The notes below the pieces were generated by a model. That model saw only the letters and a program-made list of their open reading frames with translations, had not been told where the DNA came from and searched no databases. This document shows positions 1 through 9,043 of a DNA stretch of 64,000 nt, one piece after another (positions within the stretch are counted from its first letter, which is position 1; the number at the start of each line of letters is the position of its first letter). Position numbers and translations under genes: made by a program. Origin of the DNA: Candidatus Entotheonellaceae bacterium (GTDB lineage: Bacteria; Tectomicrobia; Entotheonellia; Entotheonellales; Entotheonellaceae); contig OZ250173.1 in the NCBI GenBank assembly GCA_965238075.1, positions 1,216,001 through 1,280,000 of the forward strand, in the 5' to 3' direction.

Positions 1-280
1 CTTCCGCAGCCTCGCCGTGAACGGTCGCCTGGTGACCTGCGGCGTCACTGCCGGTCATCGCGTCGACTTGCATCTGGGACAGGTGTTTACACGCGCTTTG
101 AGCATCATGGGGGTTGGGCGCGGCTCACCCGACGACATGCGCGAACTGCTGCGGCTCGTCGATCTGGGCCGCATACGTTCGGTCATCCACCAGCGTTTTC
201 CCCTGCGGGACGCCGCGGCGGCGCACCGCCTGCTGGAAAGCTCCGCGTTTTTCGGCAAGGTGGTGCTCAACCCGGCGTGA
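1..280 (+). CDS. 3' end of zinc-binding/quinone oxidoreductase (MDR family), truncated by window edge
   Basis: C-terminal 'GRLVTCGVTAG...VIHQRFPLRDAAAAHRLLESSAFFGKVVL' is typical of ADH_zinc_N_2 proteins. Confidence 0.75.
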   Translation, partial: FRSLAVNGRLVTCGVTAGHRVDLHLGQVFTRALSIMGVGRGSPDDMRELLRLVDLGRIRSVIHQRFPLRDAAAAHRLLESSAFFGKVVLNPA

Positions 281-341
281 TGCGCTGCAAGGCCGCTTTT
301 ATGGGCCTTTGCTCAAGACGCGTGAAAGGAGAGAAAGACGG

Positions 342-3300
342 ATGCCGAAACGGGACATTGAGACCTACGCGCATGCCGATAAGGAGCGCGTCAACAACCC
401 GCCTGTCGGCTTGGTCACGCCGGAGACCGACCGCGACGCGGGTCGCAGGACCTACGCCCACGACCCGCACCTGGACCCGCAACTCTCCTGGGCCGGCAAG
501 GCGGAGCATACGTCGTTCGAGGTGCCGACCGTGTCGCTGCACGTGCACGAACGGATCGACCCGCGCACCATCGTCGAAGCGGTGCGCAAGCGCAACGGCG
601 TGCAACCGCAGATGTCCTTGTTCGCCGCGCCGAAGGACAACCCGCCGCTGCGCCCGGCTATCGAGTTCTACCGGCACCGCCACAACTGGAGCAACCGCCT
701 GATTGCGGGCGACAGCCTGCTAGTCATGAACGGCCTGATCGAGAAGGAGGGTCTCGGCGGGCAGGTGCAGACGGTCTACCTCGACCCGCCCTACGGCATC
801 CGTTACGGCTCCAACTTCCAGCCCTTCGTAAACCGGCGCGAGGTCACCGACGGCAAGGACGAGGACCTGACCGGCGAGCCGGAGCAGATTCGCGCCTTCC
901 GGGACACCTGGGAACTCGGCATTCACTCCTACCTCGCGTACCTCCGGGACCGCTTGCTGCTGGCACGCGAGTTGCTGCACGCGAGCGGAAGCTGTTTCGT
1001 GCAGATAGGCGATGAGAACGTCCATTGCGTTGGCATGGCCATGGACGAGATCTTCGGGGCCGAGAACAGGGTGGCTACCATCTCCTACGCGACCACGGGC
1101 GGCAGTTCAGCCAACACGCTCCCGCAGGTGGCCGACTATCTGCTGTGGTATGCCAGGGATCGGAGGCGCGTGAAGTATCGGCAATTGTATGAACCTCTGA
1201 CGCGAGCCGAAGTGATCCAATTTTTCAGTTCATATGTCATGGTTGAGCTGCCCGGCGGAGAGTGCCGCAAACCGACCCTGGAAGAGTGTTTCGACCCAAA
1301 TAGTTATCTGCCGGAAGGGACGCGCATCTATCGCCGCATGCCTTTGTTATCGCGGGGCGGCTCCACGACCGGCCGCTCAGAGCCCTATGAGTGGAACAGT
1401 CAAGTCTTTCATTGCCCAACGGGTCAGCAGTGGCGGGTATCAAATCCGGAAGGGCTGGACCGGCTGGCTGAGTTAGGCCGACTGGATGCTGCTGGAGCCC
1501 AAAGTTCCTTAAGTTGGAAACGATACGAAGACGAGGTTCCCGGTCGGCGCATCAACAATATCTGGGCGCCGCCGATGTCGCCTAAAGACAAGCACTATGT
1601 AGTCGAAACCGCAACCAGCGTCATCCAGCGCTGCATCCTGATGACTACTGACCCCGGCGACCTAGTATTCGATCCTACCTGCGGCTCCGGCACCACCGCC
1701 TATGTCGCCGAACAATGGGGCCGGCGCTGGATGACCTGCGACACCTCGCGGGTAGCTATCGCTATTGCCCGGCAGCGGCTGATGACCTCAAATTACGACT
1801 ACTACGAGCTGGCCCATCCCGACGAGGGTGTCGGCGCCGGGTTCCGCTACCGCAGCGTTGCCACCGTCTCGGCGCGGATCCTGGGCTACGACGAGCCGCC
1901 CAATAGAACCCTGCTCTACGACCAGCCCCATAGCGACCGCAAGAAGGCCCGTGTCACCGGTCCGTTCACCGTGGAGGCGGTGCCGGCTCCCGTCGTCACG
2001 ACGGTAGACGAGATCATGGATGCTCCTCCTGCCCCTGACGTAAGCACCGCCGACCTGTCCATCGCCCGCTCCGGCGAAACCCTGCGGCAAAGCGACTGGC
2101 GCGACGAATTGCTCAAGACCGGCATTCGCGGCAAAGCAGGGCAGCGCATCTCGTTCGCGCGGCTGGAACCATTGCCGGGAACCCGCTGGCTGCACGCCGA
2201 GGGCGAGACGCACCCGGACGCCGCCGGCGCCGACCACGTGCATGAATCCGCCACCGCCTACGCGCCCACGCCTCTTGTGGTCTCGTTCGGGCCGCACCAC
2301 GCACCGCTGGAGCAGCGGCAGGTCGCCCGTGCCATCGAGGAGGCGCAAAGCCTCGTCCCGAAGCCGAAGATCATCATCTTCGCGGCGTTTCAGTTCGACC
2401 CCGAGGCGGCCAAGGACATCGACGAGACCCACTGGCCGGGCGTCACGCTGCTCAAGGCGCAGATGAACGCCGACTTGCTGACCGAGGACCTGAAGAAGAA
2501 GCGGGCAAGCAACGAGAGCTTCTGGCTGATCGGCCAGCCGGAGGTGGAAGTTTCGAGTTTTCAGTTTTTTGTTTTTGGTGAGGGGCAGCGGAGGATTGGC
2601 GAATATGGAGCGTTCAAGAAGCTATCGGGACTTGATCGTCTGGAAGAGATCAATCGGCTTGATTGGCAAGCTCTATTCCTATACGCGCTCCTTTCCCAGG
2701 GAAGAGACGTATGGCATTACCTCGCAGATACGCAGGGCTGGGATTTCGATAGCGGCCAATATCGCGGAAGGCCAGGCCAGAAACACGAGCGGGGAGTTCC
2801 GGCAGTTTCTTGGAATAGCCCAAGGCTCGTTGGCGGAATTGGAAACGCTACTGACGATCTCGCAGAATTTGGGATATATGACCTCGCCGGAGGCCGAAGG
2901 GTTATTCAGCGACTGCGAGGCGATCGGCAGGTTGTTGGCAGGCTTGCAGAAGTCGCTGAAGCCCTGAATTTTCCCATCCAACCCCGCACTCAAAACTATC
3001 AACTCAAAACTCAAAACTTGCACAGCCTCGCCGTGCACGGCTTCGACTACTACAACACCAAGACCGGCAACGTCGAATCCGGCGGCTCGGAACGTATCGC
3101 CCTGTGGATGCTCGACCCGGACTATGACGGGCGCAGCCTGTTTCCGCGCCAGGTGTTCTTCCCCACGGCCGGCGGCAATGGAGGCTGGGCGAGATTGGCC
3201 CGCCATCTCAAGGCCGAGATCGACGAGAGCCGGATGGAAGCCTATCGGGGCACCGTCTCGCTGCCGTTTGAGGCGGGGGAGCATCGACGGGCGGCGGTGA

Positions 3301-3353
3301 AGATTGTGGACGACCGCGGGATCGAGAGTTTGAAAATCGTGGAGTTGGGGTAA
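342..3353 (+). CDS. mod: Type III-like restriction-modification adenine methyltransferase (Mod), beta-class, with ~155-aa in-frame insertion near C-terminus
   Basis: AAGGAG RBS before ATG 342; motif IV 'YLDPPYGI' precedes motif I 'VFDPTCGSGTT'; C-terminal 'GFDYYNTKTG...WMLDPDYDGRS...AAVKIVDDRGIESLKI'; upstream of Res. Confidence 0.93.
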   Translation: MPKRDIETYAHADKERVNNPPVGLVTPETDRDAGRRTYAHDPHLDPQLSWAGKAEHTSFEVPTVSLHVHERIDPRTIVEAVRKRNGVQPQMSLFAAPKDNPPLRPAIEFYRHRHNWSNRLIAGDSLLVMNGLIEKEGLGGQVQTVYLDPPYGIRYGSNFQPFVNRREVTDGKDEDLTGEPEQIRAFRDTWELGIHSYLAYLRDRLLLARELLHASGSCFVQIGDENVHCVGMAMDEIFGAENRVATISYATTGGSSANTLPQVADYLLWYARDRRRVKYRQLYEPLTRAEVIQFFSSYVMVELPGGECRKPTLEECFDPNSYLPEGTRIYRRMPLLSRGGSTTGRSEPYEWNSQVFHCPTGQQWRVSNPEGLDRLAELGRLDAAGAQSSLSWKRYEDEVPGRRINNIWAPPMSPKDKHYVVETATSVIQRCILMTTDPGDLVFDPTCGSGTTAYVAEQWGRRWMTCDTSRVAIAIARQRLMTSNYDYYELAHPDEGVGAGFRYRSVATVSARILGYDEPPNRTLLYDQPHSDRKKARVTGPFTVEAVPAPVVTTVDEIMDAPPAPDVSTADLSIARSGETLRQSDWRDELLKTGIRGKAGQRISFARLEPLPGTRWLHAEGETHPDAAGADHVHESATAYAPTPLVVSFGPHHAPLEQRQVARAIEEAQSLVPKPKIIIFAAFQFDPEAAKDIDETHWPGVTLLKAQMNADLLTEDLKKKRASNESFWLIGQPEVEVSSFQFFVFGEGQRRIGEYGAFKKLSGLDRLEEINRLDWQALFLYALLSQGRDVWHYLADTQGWDFDSGQYRGRPGQKHERGVPAVSWNSPRLVGGIGNATDDLAEFGIYDLAGGRRVIQRLRGDRQVVGRLAEVAEALNFPIQPRTQNYQLKTQNLHSLAVHGFDYYNTKTGNVESGGSERIALWMLDPDYDGRSLFPRQVFFPTAGGNGGWARLARHLKAEIDESRMEAYRGTVSLPFEAGEHRRAAVKIVDDRGIESLKIVELG
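2548..3019. mobile_element. Intervening element inside mod: inverted heptamer-repeat arms enclosing a four-helix-bundle gene
   Basis: Left arm a-agtttcg-agttttc-agttttt-tgttttt-ggtg (2548-2580); right arm cact-caaaact-atcaact-caaaact-caaaact-t (2987-3019) is its imperfect reverse complement; interior is less GC-rich than flanking mod; separates 'WLIGQPEVE' from 'VHGFDYYN'. Confidence 0.8.
2605..2967 (+). CDS. Four helix bundle protein (23S rRNA intervening-sequence protein family, structurally related to DGR Avd), nested in mod in the +1 frame
   Basis: GGAGG at 2590-2594, ATG 2605; 120 aa with family motifs 'SYRDLIVW', 'FPREETYGITSQIRRAGISIAANIAEGQAR', 'FRQFLGIAQGSLAELET'. Confidence 0.92.
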   Translation: MERSRSYRDLIVWKRSIGLIGKLYSYTRSFPREETYGITSQIRRAGISIAANIAEGQARNTSGEFRQFLGIAQGSLAELETLLTISQNLGYMTSPEAEGLFSDCEAIGRLLAGLQKSLKP

Positions 3354-4135
3354 TGGCGCAAACGAAAAAAGGCAAGGCGCTTGAACGGTTGCGGAAAGCG
3401 CTGGATGAAATGCCTGAACTGAAACAATTTCGGCTGGACTCGCCATCATTCAAAAAATGGCGAAGAGATACAGAGGTGGCCATCACCAACACGTTTGATA
3501 GCGAATCAAGCCACATCAACGATTTCCAAAAAGAGATCCTTTCATATGTTAATGACGCATCCGATGCAGAGGTTCGGGAATCAGTGAAGGCGATACTCGA
3601 ATCCATGGTTGATGAGATCAACAAGTACTGGGGAGATGAAAGCGAGGCGTCGCGGTCTTCCGATAGTCACAGGGATGGACAGATAAACACGAAAGAAGTC
3701 TTCATTGTTCACGGCAGGAACAAAGGTGCCCGTGAAAAGGTAGCGAGGTTTCTGGAAAGGTTGGAACTCAAACCCGTGGTGCTGCACGAACAGCCGAATG
3801 AAGGCCGCACAATTATCGAAAAGTTTGAGGATTTTGCGCATGTCGGGTTCGCCGTGGTTCTGCTGACGCCGGACGACATAGGCAGGCTGCAAGACGATGC
3901 GGGCGACTTCAGACCTCGCGCAAGGCAAAACGTCATTTTCGAGTTCGGGTACTTTATCGGAAAACTCGGTCGGGAGCGTGTCTGCGCTTTGGTGAAAGGG
4001 AACGTGGAAAGGCCGTCGGACTACGATGGCGTTGTTTACGTTCCATTGGACGACCTGGGTGGGTGGGAAATGAAGCTTGTCCGGGAGTTGACAAGCGTTG
4101 GATACAAGATCGACCTGAACCGGTTAGTGACATGA
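3353..4135 (+). CDS. TIR-like domain nucleotide-binding protein (CAP12/Pycsar-type TIR) with N-terminal helical domain
   Basis: 'VFIVHGRN...VLHEQPNEGRTIIEKFE...FAVVLLTPDD...RARQNVIFEFGYFIGKLGRERV'; TAATG overlap with mod stop. Confidence 0.88.
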   Translation: MAQTKKGKALERLRKALDEMPELKQFRLDSPSFKKWRRDTEVAITNTFDSESSHINDFQKEILSYVNDASDAEVRESVKAILESMVDEINKYWGDESEASRSSDSHRDGQINTKEVFIVHGRNKGAREKVARFLERLELKPVVLHEQPNEGRTIIEKFEDFAHVGFAVVLLTPDDIGRLQDDAGDFRPRARQNVIFEFGYFIGKLGRERVCALVKGNVERPSDYDGVVYVPLDDLGGWEMKLVRELTSVGYKIDLNRLVT

Positions 4136-4443
4136 ACGCACGTATCGACATACCGTCTGACAAAATCGCTGCCTTCTGTCAGCGTTGGCAGATCACGCGC
4201 CTTGCGCTGTTCGGATCGATATTGCGCGACGACTTCGGGTCCGATAGCGATATTGATGTTCTCGTTAAATTCAATGAAACGGCGCACCCCACGCTGTTCG
4301 ACATGAGCCGAATGGAAGCAGAGTTGAAGGCGATTCTGGGGCGCGAGGTCGATCTCGTCAGCCAGCGCGGTGTAGAGAGGAGCCGCAATTTCCTGCGCCG
4401 AAAAGCGATATTGGAATCCGCGGAACTCGTCTATGGATCGTGA
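4132..4443 (+). CDS. Minimal nucleotidyltransferase antitoxin (MntA-like)
   Basis: 'LALFGSILRDDFGSDSDIDVLV' GS..D.D motif; ATGA overlap with TIR gene. Confidence 0.9.
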   Translation: MNARIDIPSDKIAAFCQRWQITRLALFGSILRDDFGSDSDIDVLVKFNETAHPTLFDMSRMEAELKAILGREVDLVSQRGVERSRNFLRRKAILESAELVYGS

Positions 4444-4774
4444 TACCGGATCTATTCTCGATATCCTCGAATCGGCCCGGACGATAATGGCCTATGTCAC
4501 AGGCGTTACGCGCCAGGAGTTTTTGCGGGCTACTCAAATTCAGGATTCCGTCATTCGTCGCCTTGAGATCATCGGCGAGGCAGCGGGACGCATCTCACCG
4601 GGATTTCGCGACACGCATCCGGAAATTCAGTGGTCCGAAATAAGGGGAATGCGAAACCGGATGACCCATGGATACGACGACATTGATATGGATATCGTGT
4701 GGGACACTGTTGAGCGCGATATCCCGCATCTCATTCAAATTATTGAATCACTTGCACCACCGAAGACCGAATAG
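4433..4774 (+). CDS. HEPN/DUF86 ribonuclease toxin (HepT-like)
   Basis: 'RRLEIIGEAA' and R-x4-H-x-Y motif 'RNRMTHGYDDID...VWDTV'; follows MNT gene. Confidence 0.9.
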   Translation: MDRDTGSILDILESARTIMAYVTGVTRQEFLRATQIQDSVIRRLEIIGEAAGRISPGFRDTHPEIQWSEIRGMRNRMTHGYDDIDMDIVWDTVERDIPHLIQIIESLAPPKTE

Positions 4775-7590
4775 TGGCCCAAACGACCATCGATCGCCTG
4801 ATCGTCAACTCGCCCTACGAAGAGCCGGCGAAGCACTGGCAGTACGACCGGGTCACGCGCTCGTTCGGCCTTGCGGAGGGCCGGCGACCGGCGGGGTATG
4901 TTGTCGCTTCCCAAGACTCCAAGGCGTTTGACGACCCCGGTGTGTTTGTCGAAATTCCCTTGGTCAATCAGATCCGGCCGCGTGTCAAGGCATGGCGTGA
5001 AGCCGGGTATCCGGGCGTCACCGGCATGACCAAGCGGCTGCTGGCGCACTGGACCGACCCGGAGGAGTTTGACAGCCGGCGGTTCTTCTTCTGCCAGCTC
5101 GAGGCGGTGGAGACGCTCATCTGGCTCATTGAGGCGCCGGCGGCTGAAAAGGTGGGCGTGCAGATTCCTTCCGCTGGCGGCGCGTTCAGGCGACTGTGCG
5201 CGAAGATGGCCACCGGCTCAGGCAAAACCGTCGTCATGGCAATGGTGGCGGCGTGGCACATCCTGAACAAGGTGACATCGCCCCAGGACACCCGATTCGC
5301 CAGGCACATCCTGGTTGTCGCGCCGGGGCTCACGGTCAGGAACCGCCTGGCGGTGTTGGAGCCGTCCCACCCGGAGAACTATTACGACGCCTTCCGAATC
5401 GTGCCGTCAGCCTTGCTTGACAAGCTGCGGCAAGGCAAGGTCGTGATCCGCAACTGGCACGCGCTCAACTGGGAGGGTGGGGGCAAAATCGCCGCCAAGC
5501 GCGGCGTGGACAAGCGCGGCGCCAAAAGCGACGAAGCGTATGTGCGCGACGTGCTCGGAGACATGGCGCGGGCGCGGAACATCCTGGTCATTAACGACGA
5601 GGCGCATCACGCCTGGCGCGTTCCCGCCGAATCCAAGATGAAGGGCGTGGCGAAGGCCGACATCGACGAGGCTACCAAGTGGATTGGCGGCCTCGACCGC
5701 ATCCACAGGGCGCGGGGCATTCTGACCTGCTACGACTTCTCGGCCACCCCTTTCGCGCCGTCAGGCAAGCGGAGTTCCGAGGAGGCGTTGTTCGGCTGGA
5801 TCGTGAGCGACTTCGGCCTGAACGACGCCATCGAATCGGGTCTGGTCAAGACCCCGCGCGTGGTGATCCGGGACGACGCGGTGCCCGATGCCAAGACTTA
5901 CAGATCCCGCCTCTATCACATCTACAACGATGCGGAGGTCAAAGACGACCTGAACCGCCACGCCAAGACGGAAGAACCGCTGCCCGATCTGGTCCTGAAC
6001 GGTTATTACCTGCTCGGCTACGACTGGCGCGAGACGGCGAAGGACTGGAGCGACAAGGGATTCCAGACCCCGCCGGTCATGATTACCGTTGCCAACCGCA
6101 CGGAGACGGCAGCTCGCATCAAGTACGCGTTTGGCCACAAGAGGGTCCATATCGAGGAACTATGCGACCCGGCGCGCACCCTTCACATCGACTCGAAGGT
6201 GCTCGAAGCGGCTGAGGCTGCTGAAGAAGTTTTAAGTGGCAAGTTTTCAGTGGATGCCAGCAAGGACGGTCTAAAAACTGAAAACGTAAAACCGCCAACC
6301 AAGAAGCAGCAAGCCGAGCTGCTGCGCCGGCAGGTGGACAGCGTGGGCCGGCTTGGCAAGGAGGGCGAGCGGATACAGAACGTGATTTCCGTTGGCATGC
6401 TCTCCGAGGGATGGGACGCAAAGACCGTAACCCACATCATGGGATTGCGCGCGTTCACCAGCCAGCTTCTCTGCGAGCAGGTGGTCGGCCGCGGCCTGCG
6501 TCGCACCTCCTATGAAGTGGACCCGAGTAGCGGTCTGTTCAAGCCGGAATACGTCAACATTTTCGGCGTGCCCTTTACGTTTCTGCCCCACGAGGGGGGA
6601 ACGGACGGCCCACCGCCGCCGCCGGAACCAAAGACGGCTATCGAGCCGGTAGCGGACCAGGCGGGTTTCGAAATCTCCTGGCCGAACGTGATCCGCATCG
6701 ACCACGGCTTCCGTCCGCACCTGTCCCTGGATTGGCAGGCGCTGCAGCCCCTGGAACTCGACGCCAGCCAGACGGCCAGGCTCGCCGAGCTTGCTCCGAT
6801 CGTCGAAGGCAAGCCCGACGTGTCGAAGATCGAGGCGATCGACCTGGGAAAGCTGGCGACAGAGTTTCGTACGCAGCGCATCGTCTTTGAGACGGCGCGG
6901 GACGTGTACGATCTGATGCAGCCGAACTGGCCGGGCGGCAAGGCGTTGCTGCTGGCCCAGCTGGTGCGGTTGATCGAGCAATTCATTCGCTCGGATAGCA
7001 TCAGGATTACCCCGGCCCTGTTCCGGCATGACGATCTCAAGCGCCGCCTCATCATCACGCTCAACATGACCAAGGTTGTGCAGCATGTCTGGGAGGGCAT
7101 CCGCTTCGAGAATACCGAAAGACTGGAGCCGGTGTTCGACCGGGACCGGCCCATCCGTTCTACGGGTGACATGGCGACGTGGTACACGGGCAAGCCGTGC
7201 GAACGCGCGGCACGCAGTCACATCAACTTCTGCGTCTACGACGGCACCTGGGAGGCAACGGAGGCCTTCGCCCTCGATCATGCCGACGAGGTGGCTGCCT
7301 GGGTGAAGAACGATCACCTCGGTTTCGAGGCGTTCTACGTTCACCGAGGCGTGGTGCGGAAGTACCGCCCGGATTTCCTGATCCGGCTCTCCTCGGGCGA
7401 CATGCTGGTTCTGGAGGTCAAGGGGCAAGACAGCGATCGGGACCAGACCAAGCGCCGATTCCTCGACGAATGGGTACGCGCCGTCAATGCCCATGGTGGC
7501 TTCGGTCGCTGGGCCTGGGACGTGTCGAAATCTCCCAGCGACATTCGCGACATCCTCGCAAAGCGCGCCCATGCGGCGTCTACTGCTTGA
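4774..7590 (+). CDS. res: Type III-like restriction endonuclease/helicase subunit (Res)
   Basis: Walker A 'MATGSGKT', 'NDEAHH', 'SATP', 'MLSEGWDA', 'EQVVGRGLRR', C-terminal PD-(D/E)xK 'YRPDFLIRL...LEVKG'; GTG start overlapping HEPN stop. Confidence 0.93.
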   Translation: MAQTTIDRLIVNSPYEEPAKHWQYDRVTRSFGLAEGRRPAGYVVASQDSKAFDDPGVFVEIPLVNQIRPRVKAWREAGYPGVTGMTKRLLAHWTDPEEFDSRRFFFCQLEAVETLIWLIEAPAAEKVGVQIPSAGGAFRRLCAKMATGSGKTVVMAMVAAWHILNKVTSPQDTRFARHILVVAPGLTVRNRLAVLEPSHPENYYDAFRIVPSALLDKLRQGKVVIRNWHALNWEGGGKIAAKRGVDKRGAKSDEAYVRDVLGDMARARNILVINDEAHHAWRVPAESKMKGVAKADIDEATKWIGGLDRIHRARGILTCYDFSATPFAPSGKRSSEEALFGWIVSDFGLNDAIESGLVKTPRVVIRDDAVPDAKTYRSRLYHIYNDAEVKDDLNRHAKTEEPLPDLVLNGYYLLGYDWRETAKDWSDKGFQTPPVMITVANRTETAARIKYAFGHKRVHIEELCDPARTLHIDSKVLEAAEAAEEVLSGKFSVDASKDGLKTENVKPPTKKQQAELLRRQVDSVGRLGKEGERIQNVISVGMLSEGWDAKTVTHIMGLRAFTSQLLCEQVVGRGLRRTSYEVDPSSGLFKPEYVNIFGVPFTFLPHEGGTDGPPPPPEPKTAIEPVADQAGFEISWPNVIRIDHGFRPHLSLDWQALQPLELDASQTARLAELAPIVEGKPDVSKIEAIDLGKLATEFRTQRIVFETARDVYDLMQPNWPGGKALLLAQLVRLIEQFIRSDSIRITPALFRHDDLKRRLIITLNMTKVVQHVWEGIRFENTERLEPVFDRDRPIRSTGDMATWYTGKPCERAARSHINFCVYDGTWEATEAFALDHADEVAAWVKNDHLGFEAFYVHRGVVRKYRPDFLIRLSSGDMLVLEVKGQDSDRDQTKRRFLDEWVRAVNAHGGFGRWAWDVSKSPSDIRDILAKRAHAASTA
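6228..6300. repeat. Gene-less heptamer inverted-repeat hairpin in frame within res
   Basis: agtttta-agtggca-agttttc-agtggat ... aaaaact-gaaaacg-taaaacc-gccaacc; perfect core gttttcagt (6243-6251) / actgaaaac (6277-6285); AT-rich patch in GC-rich gene. Confidence 0.65.
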
Positions 7591-7652
7591 AAATTCGGAG
7601 GGTTGACCGACTGCTTGCGCTGGAGGTCCTGGAGGTAGAATCAATCCCATGA
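7587..7652 (+). pseudogene. Possible internally deleted HicA-type toxin remnant (21 codons)
   Basis: TTG overlaps res stop and TGA overlaps HicB ATG; 'MKIRRVDRLL' resembles a HicA N-terminus; occupies the hicA position. Confidence 0.35.
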
Positions 7653-7894
7653 TCGACTTGAAATACGACCTAGTCATTGAAGCTACGGCCGACCCGAACT
7701 TCTTCGGGTTTTATTCTCCGGATTTGGAAGGGTTCACCGGGGTGGGACACTCGATAGAGGATTGCCTTTATAAGGCCAGATGGGGCATGGAAGAGCATGT
7801 TGGGTTGCTGCGCGAACAAGAAATGCCTGTCCCTGATATGAACGCTGCCCCGACGATCATCATCCGAAATGAGCCTGAGAAGGCTGTGGTATAG
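7649..7894 (+). CDS. HicB-like antitoxin
   Basis: 'FYSPDLEGFTGVGHSIEDCL...EEHVGLLREQEMPVP' HicB-like pattern; GGAGG upstream. Confidence 0.8.
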   Translation: MIDLKYDLVIEATADPNFFGFYSPDLEGFTGVGHSIEDCLYKARWGMEEHVGLLREQEMPVPDMNAAPTIIIRNEPEKAVV

Positions 7895-7924
7895 CCCGCA
7901 AGATCAAGTTGAATATCACTGCCC

Positions 7925-8773
7925 TCACGATTTGTCTGCCTGCAGAAAGCGGCGCAATTCGGACGCATCCATGACGTAGCTATGTGCCCCTGCCGGAAAT
8001 TCTCCCGCTTCCACCTCGCACCTGAACGCCTGCAAGGCTTGCAACATCGGCTCGCGCAACTGGGCGAATTGCTTGACGAATTTGGGCACGAAGCCGTCGA
8101 AAAGCCCCAGGACGTCATGGAACACCAGCACCTGCCCGGCGCAGCCCGCACCGGCGCCGATACCGATCGTGGGAACGCTCAGCTTCTCGGTCACCGCCTG
8201 CGCCACGGCGGACGGGACGGCTTCCAGCACGACGGCGAAACAACCCGCCTCCTGAAGGGCGAGGGCATCGTCGCGCAGCTTCAGGGCCGCCCCAGCGGTG
8301 GTCGCCTGCACCTTGTAGCCGCCCAGCTTGGTGGCCGTTTGCGGCGCCAGCCCCACGTGTCCCATCACCGGCACCCCGGCTGCGACGATGGCCCGCACGG
8401 TTTCCGCCACCTCGACGACGCCCTCCAGCTTCACCGCGTCCATGTGCGCTTCCTTCATGTAGCGCCCAGCGTTGCGGACTGCCTCTCGCCGGCTGACCTG
8501 GTAGGACATGAACGGCATATCGCCCACCAGCAAGGCGCGCGAAGCCCCGCGAGCCACGGCCTTGCAGTGATGCAGCATGTCGTCCACCGTCACCGACACC
8601 GTGTCGCGGTGACCCAGCACGGTCATGGCCAGCGTGTCGCCCACCAGAATGGCGTCCACACCGGCCTCGTCGACCAGCTTGGCCGCCGGGTAATCGTAGG
8701 CGGTGAGCATGGTAATCGGCTGGCCCTTGTCCCGTTTGCGCTGCAGGTCGTGGAGGGAAACTTTTCGTGGCAT
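7925..8773 (-). CDS. panB: 3-methyl-2-oxobutanoate hydroxymethyltransferase
   Basis: 'ITMLTAYDYP', 'ILVGDTL', 'VGDMPFMSY', 'AVKLEG', 'GIGAG'. Confidence 0.96.
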   Translation of the reverse strand: MPRKVSLHDLQRKRDKGQPITMLTAYDYPAAKLVDEAGVDAILVGDTLAMTVLGHRDTVSVTVDDMLHHCKAVARGASRALLVGDMPFMSYQVSRREAVRNAGRYMKEAHMDAVKLEGVVEVAETVRAIVAAGVPVMGHVGLAPQTATKLGGYKVQATTAGAALKLRDDALALQEAGCFAVVLEAVPSAVAQAVTEKLSVPTIGIGAGAGCAGQVLVFHDVLGLFDGFVPKFVKQFAQLREPMLQALQAFRCEVEAGEFPAGAHSYVMDASELRRFLQADKS

Positions 8774-9043
8774 GTGACGGCACCTTGCTGGAAGCAATTC
8801 GGTCGGCGGTTTATGGGAGTTGTTTCGGCGCAACCGTACCCCATCCGCTCCGGTGTGTCCAGACGGCGAGCCCGCTGCCGCAAGCCGCGCCGCTACCTTG
8901 ACATCAAAACACCGATAGCTTAATAGGTGGGACTTTCACGACGCATCCGAACGCGGTGGCGTACACACCGCAAGATAGCCCACAGGCAGCAACCGGCCGG
9001 CAGCAGGGAGGTCCATCGCTGCCCGGTCGGGAGGAAAGGAACG

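Follow-up and report, generated by a model that had tools for sequence, protein, structure and literature searches.

Tandem repeats with a 7-nt unit are known from bacteria, the short tandemly repeated repetitive (STRR) sequences of cyanobacteria being one example. Another is the TAACTGA repeat of Beggiatoaceae, Cyanobacteria, and Bacteroidetes, which the relevant passages of MacGregor (2015; PMC4679880) present as an intergenic direct repeat of unknown function. [quoted passage not shown] The 23S rRNA of Coxiella, Leptospira, and Salmonella can carry intervening sequences (IVSs) with or without an open reading frame (ORF) of the S23p/four-helix-bundle type, in the outline given by PMC4990558. 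Here, we analyze a 64,000-nt stretch (the window) of a Candidatus Entotheonellaceae bacterium (GCA_965238075.1, contig OZ250173.1, positions 1,216,001 to 1,280,000), in which a hairpin built of heptamers lies in frame within res, the gene of a type III-like restriction endonuclease/helicase (Res). A second heptamer element, here called the mod cassette, lies in the partner methyltransferase gene mod and encloses a four-helix-bundle gene.

The AT-rich segment of res is probably a selfish insert similar to RPEs, a translated hairpin of the IVS/heptamer family that is in decay and that has been passed between Res alleles as a short tract; to judge from its letters, it would be an ORF-less member of a wider family of heptamer inverted-repeat hairpins. 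The architecture reported in a preliminary description of this DNA was recovered in full (Table 1). AGT recurs at 7-nt steps (6228, 6235, 6242, and 6249) in the left arm, whose units are unequal (AGTTTTA, AGTGGCA, and AGTTTTC), GTTTT being present in two of the three; a repeat search returned the same arm as a 14-nt direct repeat (6227-6239 and 6241-6253, 92% alike). An AAAAC-phased right arm follows after a loop of 20-25 nt, and the 9-bp core, GTTTTCAGT facing ACTGAAAAC, is perfect. In a second register, the arms form a 22-nt inverted repeat (6229-6250 and 6271-6292) with 73% complementarity (16/22) and 20 nt between. The segment therefore has the two parts by which the feature is recognized, namely a left arm of at least two phased 7-nt units and a complementary phased right arm after a loop of about 10-40 nt, and it misses the exact pattern used to scan for the family at flanking units only. 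The right-arm units are altered in such a way that no TGA falls in the res frame, which stays open and reads VLSGKFSVDASKDGLKTENVKPPT; the other two forward frames contain stops. The segment would accordingly be translated straight through. There is no ORF in the loop, so no gene of the TIGR02436/PF05635 family lies between the arms.

Comparison with close relatives places the hairpin in a region that is otherwise occupied by a different sequence. The orthologs in three same-genus genomes (G001, G002, and G003; 89-91% protein identity) lack the segment; in them, the same flanks enclose 71-74 nt of ordinary, GC-rich linker, identity being lost after about position 6219 and regained at about 6297. 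The segment has a GC content of 0.44 and a GC content at third codon positions (GC3) of 0.35, against 0.63 and 0.81 for the gene, and it uses codons that are rare in the rest of res (TTA, 0/73; CTA, 1/73; ACT, 2/47). The proposed reading as a foreign, insert-like segment in a variable linker is supported by its absence from these orthologs and by the GC3 contrast. Ordinary Res linkers evolve fast, being 0.40 identical at 0.75-0.80 overall identity, and in distant Res paralogs of the window genome and two relatives (G000-G002) the linker position is taken by a structured helical stretch without heptamers. AAGAAG stands on both sides of the segment (6224-6229 and 6301-6306), where it belongs to host EE+G and KK codons. 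It is not a target-site duplication made on entry, because empty-site homologs have it too, but it could still act as microhomology.

The periodicity of the arms stands well above background. AGTTTTCAGT, with at most one mismatch, has 8 matches in the window where 1.40 are expected, a number that none of 100 shuffles reached, and 7 of the 8 fall within the mod and res elements. The pattern (GTTTTNN)x3, searched on either strand, marks only three loci in 3.35 Mb of genome, two of which are the mod cassette's left arm and the res hairpin's right arm and the third an unrelated array of four GTTTTGC units outside the window (G000:C1:111508-111540). When two phased GTTTT had to be followed within 15-90 nt by two phased AAAAC, the res segment was the only locus in the genome, and five Markov-simulated genomes contained none. 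Perfect 9-bp inverted repeats with a loop of 3-30 nt are frequent (30 in the window vs 14.5 ± 4.9 in 30 simulations); such a repeat alone is ordinary, and paired phased heptamer arrays are not. The preliminary description had named two outcomes as unfavorable to its reading, conservation at the protein level without nucleotide periodicity and a background frequency of the pattern. The segment is indeed conserved at the protein level in homologs, yet its pattern is far from background in the window genome.

The segment is not an assembly artefact, because contigs of four runs from four studies bridge it; they differ from it at 2-19 letters, and neither insertions nor deletions are listed inside. 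Read depth is lower over 2662-3023 and 6101-6281, dips to which no weight attaches. Phase variation by slippage was rejected as well: it is unlikely because the units of the res hairpin are not identical, and no length variants are listed in the contigs of the four runs.

The peptide encoded by the hairpin, EEVFSSQFSVDTSKDNLKTENAKLTT in its canonical form, is found in 18 of 120 listed Res homologs, the remainder having an acidic linker of equal length. A search with the 40-residue stretch alone, covering 5.8 billion clusters, returned 15 proteins, all of them Res of the same family. When the linker columns are left out of the tree, the carriers are spread over three clades, which requires at least four changes, three of them forced by well-supported branches. 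The approximately unbiased (AU) test rejects a single carrier clade (log-likelihood difference, 369; p = 1.2e-5), and still does so when restricted to about 140 flanking residues on each side (difference, 103; p = 0.0008); the carrier group for this test was defined from the linker, though the first tree had been seen beforehand. The segment of P0005 (clade A) is identical at 24/24 residues to that of five of the seven clade-B proteins, with 0.81 identity elsewhere. Other clade-A segments drift like ordinary linkers (0.50-0.88 at 0.85-0.95 overall), and the window's copy matches its sister P0005 at 16/24 residues, 8/24 having changed, as compared with 0.947 identity for the rest of the protein. 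Identity is not raised in 30-residue windows beside the segment; the shared tract is tight. Because the same segment, loop-encoded residues included, occurs in three Res lineages, it was not born in the lineage of the window, and its presence in separate lineages indicates that it has been passed between Res alleles.

Carriers were not encountered in the other collections searched. Among viral contigs, 30 Res relatives were found and 25 linkers read, none with the hairpin; 400 Acidobacteriota genomes contained four close Res relatives, of which two linkers could be read, both acidic, and a third was interrupted by a gap in its scaffold; seven more linkers from 400 genomes of relatives were free of it; and the best Res hit on plasmids, from Planktothrix, has an acidic linker. 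In two of the homologs (P0070 and P0104), the linker reads SGQWIVDS ... LSLSTIHKP, a peptide that, on back-translation, would come from AGTGGAN units in phase together with their complement. The Res site may in these two proteins hold a heptamer hairpin of another, second kind.

Outside Res, the design (AGTTTTC)n - loop - (GAAAACT)n is widespread. The exact pattern, AGTTTTCAGT and AAACTGAAAAC separated by 10-40 nt, occurs in at least 124 stretches of species-representative genomes; Pyrinomonadaceae/Acidobacteriota, Flavobacterium, and Planctomycetota account for most of the matches listed, and one genome can have as many as seven. A narrower pattern tuned to Res gave 41 further loci in JGI metagenomes. 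AGTGTTC, AGTGGAC, and AGTTATC are frequent variant units. One Pyrinomonadaceae genome has 81+96 (GTTTTNN)x3 matches, arranged as facing pairs, vs 11+13 (24) for the reversed control; genomes of the window's genus have 0-4. Many copies per genome are a trait of the family that the window genome does not show, with its one paired locus in 3.35 Mb. Typical members are also placed differently. Among the matches listed, 95 distinct copies have sufficient flank, and 86 of these fall outside any ORF of at least 100 aa; family hairpins adjoin genes at a median distance of 6 nt to a stop and 20 nt to a start; the res hairpin, at codons 483-508 of 938, does not abut a gene end. The proposal that restriction-modification (RM) genes are repeatedly targeted is not supported for the hairpins as such, none of which lies within a Res or Mod gene among the matches listed (0/124 genome loci and 0/41 metagenome loci). 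It survives in a weaker form, as the identical segment stands at one Res site in three lineages and as three of four checked four-helix-bundle genes, from two genomes, lie in RM operons.

These four-helix-bundle genes connect the family to the mod cassette. The cassette gene scores 119.3 bits with TIGR02436 and 138.6 bits with NF008911, and a long-range stem is predicted for the whole element (z -2.08). As the preliminary description had observed, AGTTTTCAGT recurs in the left arm of the cassette (2556-2565) as in that of the res hairpin. Elsewhere, two loci (L023 and L117) have a four-helix-bundle gene abutting AGTTTTC-type arms, and in the Pyrinomonadaceae genome (G041) both such genes (L137 and L138) are bracketed by inverted arrays of other heptamers, one gene lying between a DNA methylase and a ResIII helicase and the other between hemE and hemH. 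The window genome has a second four-helix-bundle gene, between hsdR and hsdS, which is without arms. A left arm, a short loop, and a right arm, followed by the four-helix-bundle gene and then by another right arm, are seen at about 1380-1900 of L138 (unit ATGATGA, the element being situated between an N6_N4 methylase and a ResIII helicase) and at 1980-2480 of L023 (AGTTTTC-type units); in both, it looks as if the gene had entered one arm of a hairpin that was already there. By analogy with rRNA intervening sequences, gene-bearing and ORF-less hairpins can be viewed as two forms of one design. Both forms exist elsewhere, which fits the preliminary interpretation; the suggested link between the two elements of the window is not supported, since the cassette is present alone in G001 and G002. 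In the literature searched, we found no description of heptamer hairpins inside genes or of their link to four-helix-bundle proteins.

The state of the cassette varies within the genus. It is present in G001, G002, and G005 and replaced in G003 by a 13-residue loop, IKRVPEGEDEGKY; the res hairpin is in none of G001-G003, so the two elements do not travel together. In G000 and G002, the reading frame runs on through the cassette; in G001 (14-nt duplication of an arm unit) and G005 (short deletion), the match to mod shifts to another frame at the right arm. Read-through is not conserved, because the mod frame breaks in G001 and G005 and a loop stands in G003; some species may have a split or disabled Mod. 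Contigs of all four runs join across the cassette (2542-2549 to 3033-3039), one with 33 other letters between the sides; these cassette-less mod alleles probably derive from related organisms, the reads having been mapped at 88% likeness.

Taken together, the favored account would run as follows. The ordinary acidic sequence at the variable linker of the Res helicase gave way to an ORF-less heptamer hairpin lying in frame, which would be translated there as a linker of roughly 24 residues and could survive since its frame is without stops and the site presumably tolerates almost any sequence. It would have arisen once and then moved from one Res allele to another in a tract of at most about 100 nt, by short-patch recombination or by an element-specific copy-in. 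Neutral decay towards host composition would have followed, leaving nine perfect base pairs in the stem of the window's copy, and the segment would be a passenger, either selfish or neutral, and would not work as a regulatory site.

Several observations weigh against this account. The strongest, as far as a pure passenger is concerned, is the perfect conservation within clade B, where segments are 24/24 identical between proteins that are 0.90-0.92 identical elsewhere; this exceeds the conservation of the folded domains and could reflect purifying selection on a function, not recency. That a hairpin also encodes the peptides of the other carriers is an inference from residues such as FSSQFSV and LKTEN, the types that AGTTTTC/GAAAACT arrays encode. 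The old linker was replaced at nearly equal length and not lengthened, which a simple insertion would not predict. Neither a transposase (sought among the window ORFs only), nor a target-site duplication, nor any other way of moving turned up. A copy that lies mid-gene and in frame is also an exception, because typical members are intergenic (86/95), and in the five hairpin-spanning frames for which Pfam gave a hit, the hairpin precedes the domain, in the leader. Lastly, the 49-nt core, at -12.7 kcal/mol, does fold better than shuffled sequences (z -2.46; 1/200 shuffles). Over 91 nt, the fold is no better than that of shuffled sequences (z -0.02; 93/200 shuffles fold as well), which speaks for decay of the window's copy and so for the favored account. 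A 69-nt fold gives z -0.89 in sense (39/200 shuffles) and z -1.99 in antisense (8/200). Overall, the RNA stability of the window's res hairpin is modest.

A more far-reaching proposal, which we hold only tentatively and regard as rather unlikely, is that heptamer hairpins are a mobile DNA family able to copy themselves, in a tract of at most about 100 nt, into one codon-level site that homologous genes of different bacteria share. Entry, decay, and re-entry would form a homing-like cycle for which the hairpins encode no enzyme. The four-helix-bundle proteins of gene-bearing members would act on the arms, and the Res linker would record the cycle, its copies being identical in hosts with 81% identity and decayed in a sister with 95% identity.

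Among the rival explanations, the one that survives best, though it is unlikely, is that the res hairpin is a working cis-element, of RNA or DNA, which is read by RNase III or the four-helix protein and tunes Res relative to Mod. Two heptamer elements with common arm motifs lie within 3.7 kb of each other in one operon, the canonical segment is kept at 24/24 within clade B as well as from P0005 to clade B, only 1 of 200 shuffles folds as well as the 49-nt core, and three of the four checked four-helix-bundle genes are in RM operons. The stems of rRNA IVSs, in the description given by PMC4990558, are RNase III substrates. Such co-regulation is difficult to reconcile with G001 and G002, which have the mod cassette without the res hairpin; because they carry the cassette alone, the pair of elements is not required together. 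The window's own copy has lost 8/24 canonical residues and retains nine perfect, AU-rich pairs, a stem that is short for RNase III, and the 91-nt fold equals that of shuffled sequences. Rfam returned no rRNA or other match in window positions 1-9000, the hairpin site included, and a promoter scan of 5800-6700 gave 0 sites. Terminator-like sites occur on the minus strand, beyond the segment or over its last bases only (nearest, 6291-6310), and were given no weight. A contig from an RNA library runs unbroken through the segment, which counts only weakly against processing, contigs being unable to show cleavage.

Alternatively, the hairpin might be a collapsed remnant of a four-helix-bundle cassette that once stood at the Res site, or a copy of the mod cassette minus its gene, a derivation that we consider improbable. 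The arms do resemble those of the cassette (left, 14/18, as good in 3/500 shuffles; right, 13/15, 8/500), and filled and ORF-less hairpins both occur in the family. To this extent, the preliminary interpretation is supported: the arm design is the same. Descent by collapse is not supported, as nothing inside matches. The res loop is without similarity to the inner ends of the cassette, the likeness being confined to the arms, and even the right-arm heptamers differ (CTGAAAA in res, CTCAAAA in mod). An alignment of Res homologs had been proposed to reveal members with a full cassette or with no insert. The latter were found (G001-G003), the former in none of the 120 listed, where no insert of at least 15 residues occurs at the linker; nor is there one in the 25 viral, 7 + 2 genomic, and 1 plasmid relatives that were read. 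One candidate, P0009 (1060 residues), was rejected, its extra 122 residues being an internal duplication of about residues 530-680, not a cassette; the duplication may be an assembly artefact. Finally, a gene-bearing ancestor is not needed, because ORF-less hairpins are by far commoner.

Equally improbable in our judgment is selection on the peptide itself, as a preferred linker or interaction motif, with the periodicity only a trace of origin. Such selection would explain why the peptide is kept across three clades at the length of the ordinary linker. It sits poorly with a position at which the protein otherwise evolves fastest (linker identity 0.40 at 0.75-0.80 overall), with the drift of clade-A peptides (0.50-0.88 at 0.85-0.95 overall), and with the persistence of rare AT-rich codons in a gene of GC3 0.81. 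The AlphaFold model shows coil with a predicted local distance difference test (pLDDT) score of <50 at the segment, which is weak evidence against this reading, the whole model being poor (mean pLDDT 52.6); a sequence search for a solved structure of a Res relative found none. The last reading, that an AT-rich patch only looks periodic and palindromic by chance, can appeal to the 30 perfect 9-bp inverted repeats of the window and to the 91-nt fold (z -0.02), and has a negligible probability, being already contradicted by the single paired array in 3.35 Mb (0 in five simulated genomes), the eight motif matches vs 1.4 expected (reached in 0/100 shuffles), the hairpin design at more than 160 loci elsewhere, and the hairpin peptide in 17 other Res clusters.

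The host gene is one component of a composite defence operon at the start of the window, consisting of mod, a TIR-domain gene, an MNT/HepT pair, and res (Table 1). Residues 107-282 of Res correspond to Pfam ResIII, and the protein matches NCBIfam NF046055 over its full length (1120.8 bits vs a cut-off of 800; residues 7-931). Among the relatives, the res ortholog of G002 contains one in-frame TAG, and G005 has a res fragment of 49 residues with a stop; the restriction system is decaying in some species of the genus.

Table 1. Positions in the window of the res hairpin, its host gene, and neighboring features.
Feature	Position	Strand	Basis or remark
AT-rich in-frame segment, 77 nt, Res residues about 483-508	6220..6296	+	alignment with G001, G002, G003
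Left arm, four AGT-phased heptamers = two 14-nt units (AAGTTTTNAGTGG)	6227..6253	+	sequence, direct repeat 92% alike
5' half of perfect 9-bp inverted repeat, GTTTTCAGT	6243..6251	+	
Loop, 25 nt between the perfect arms but 20 nt in the 22-nt register, small inner stem in predicted fold	6252..6276	+	
3' half of perfect 9-bp inverted repeat, ACTGAAAAC	6277..6285	+	
Right arm, three phased heptamers, AAAAC at 6274, 6281, 6288	6271..6292	+	
res gene, 938 aa, BPTD_3080-family type III-like restriction endonuclease/helicase, hairpin host	4774..7590	+	ORF list
mod cassette: four-helix-bundle gene (2605-2967) between heptamer arms (left about 2549-2578, right about 2985-3018)	2548..3020	+	
mod	about 342-3353		N6_N4_Mtase
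TIR-domain gene, CAP12/Pycsar-type	3353-4135		between mod and res
MNT/HepT toxin-antitoxin pair	4063-4774		between mod and res

The locus is of interest as a datable natural experiment, with an empty site in sister species, identical copies in distant alleles, and a decayed copy in the window. Detailed accounts of selfish palindromes lying in frame come mainly from Rickettsia, and the res case belongs to a different, much more widespread family. If transfer between alleles were driven by the element, it would provide a handle on how heptamer hairpins move and would bear on the role of the four-helix-bundle proteins, which are very common and of unknown function.

Of the known systems, the phase-variable simple-sequence repeats of type III mod/res genes share with the res hairpin the presence of short tandem units in an RM gene; they differ in that the res units are non-identical and that no length variant is listed in the four runs' contigs. 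Repetitive extragenic palindromic (REP) and MITE-like hairpins resemble the heptamer family in being short, dispersed, hairpin-forming, and non-coding and in filling intergenic gaps. Unlike them, the res element showed no transposon-type terminal inverted repeats, target duplication, or cognate transposase (among the window ORFs), and its arms are arrays of variable unit number. The TAACTGA repeats, as far as the passages on them in MacGregor (2015; PMC4679880) go, have the same unit length, and their opposite strand, AGTTATC, is one base from AGTTTTC. They are likewise mostly intergenic near gene ends and patchy across phyla, and stops in one orientation limit their overlap with genes. In contrast to those repeats, which the same passages describe as mainly direct, upstream of starts, and with only one inverted set in the genome concerned, the res arrays are inverted, form a hairpin, and lie mid-gene.

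The parallels with 23S rRNA IVSs, in the outline of PMC4990558, extend further. In both cases, a stem-loop with a GC content below that of its host replaces a small loop of the host molecule, the elements are sporadic among relatives yet conserved in their sites, and forms with and without an ORF exist; in addition, the partner mod cassette carries a gene of the IVS-protein family. The res hairpin departs from IVSs in that its host is an mRNA or protein-coding gene, which the ribosome would read through, and in that its arms are tandem heptamers. From RPEs, which the MITE review (PMC10969869) characterizes as elements of about 100-150 bp that are specific to Rickettsia and present in many copies per genome, it differs in its 77-nt length and 7-nt units and in being the sole copy in its genome apart from the mod cassette arms. 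RPEs are moreover shared among many genes, whereas the res peptide is confined to Res of one family (15/15 hits), and the res element replaces a linker and belongs to a family that is otherwise intergenic. What the res hairpin has in common with RPEs, within the bounds of that review's account, is a short palindrome lying in frame in a working gene, as the open frame and the full-length NF046055 match suggest, which would be translated as a peptide at a tolerant site and which has relatives elsewhere.

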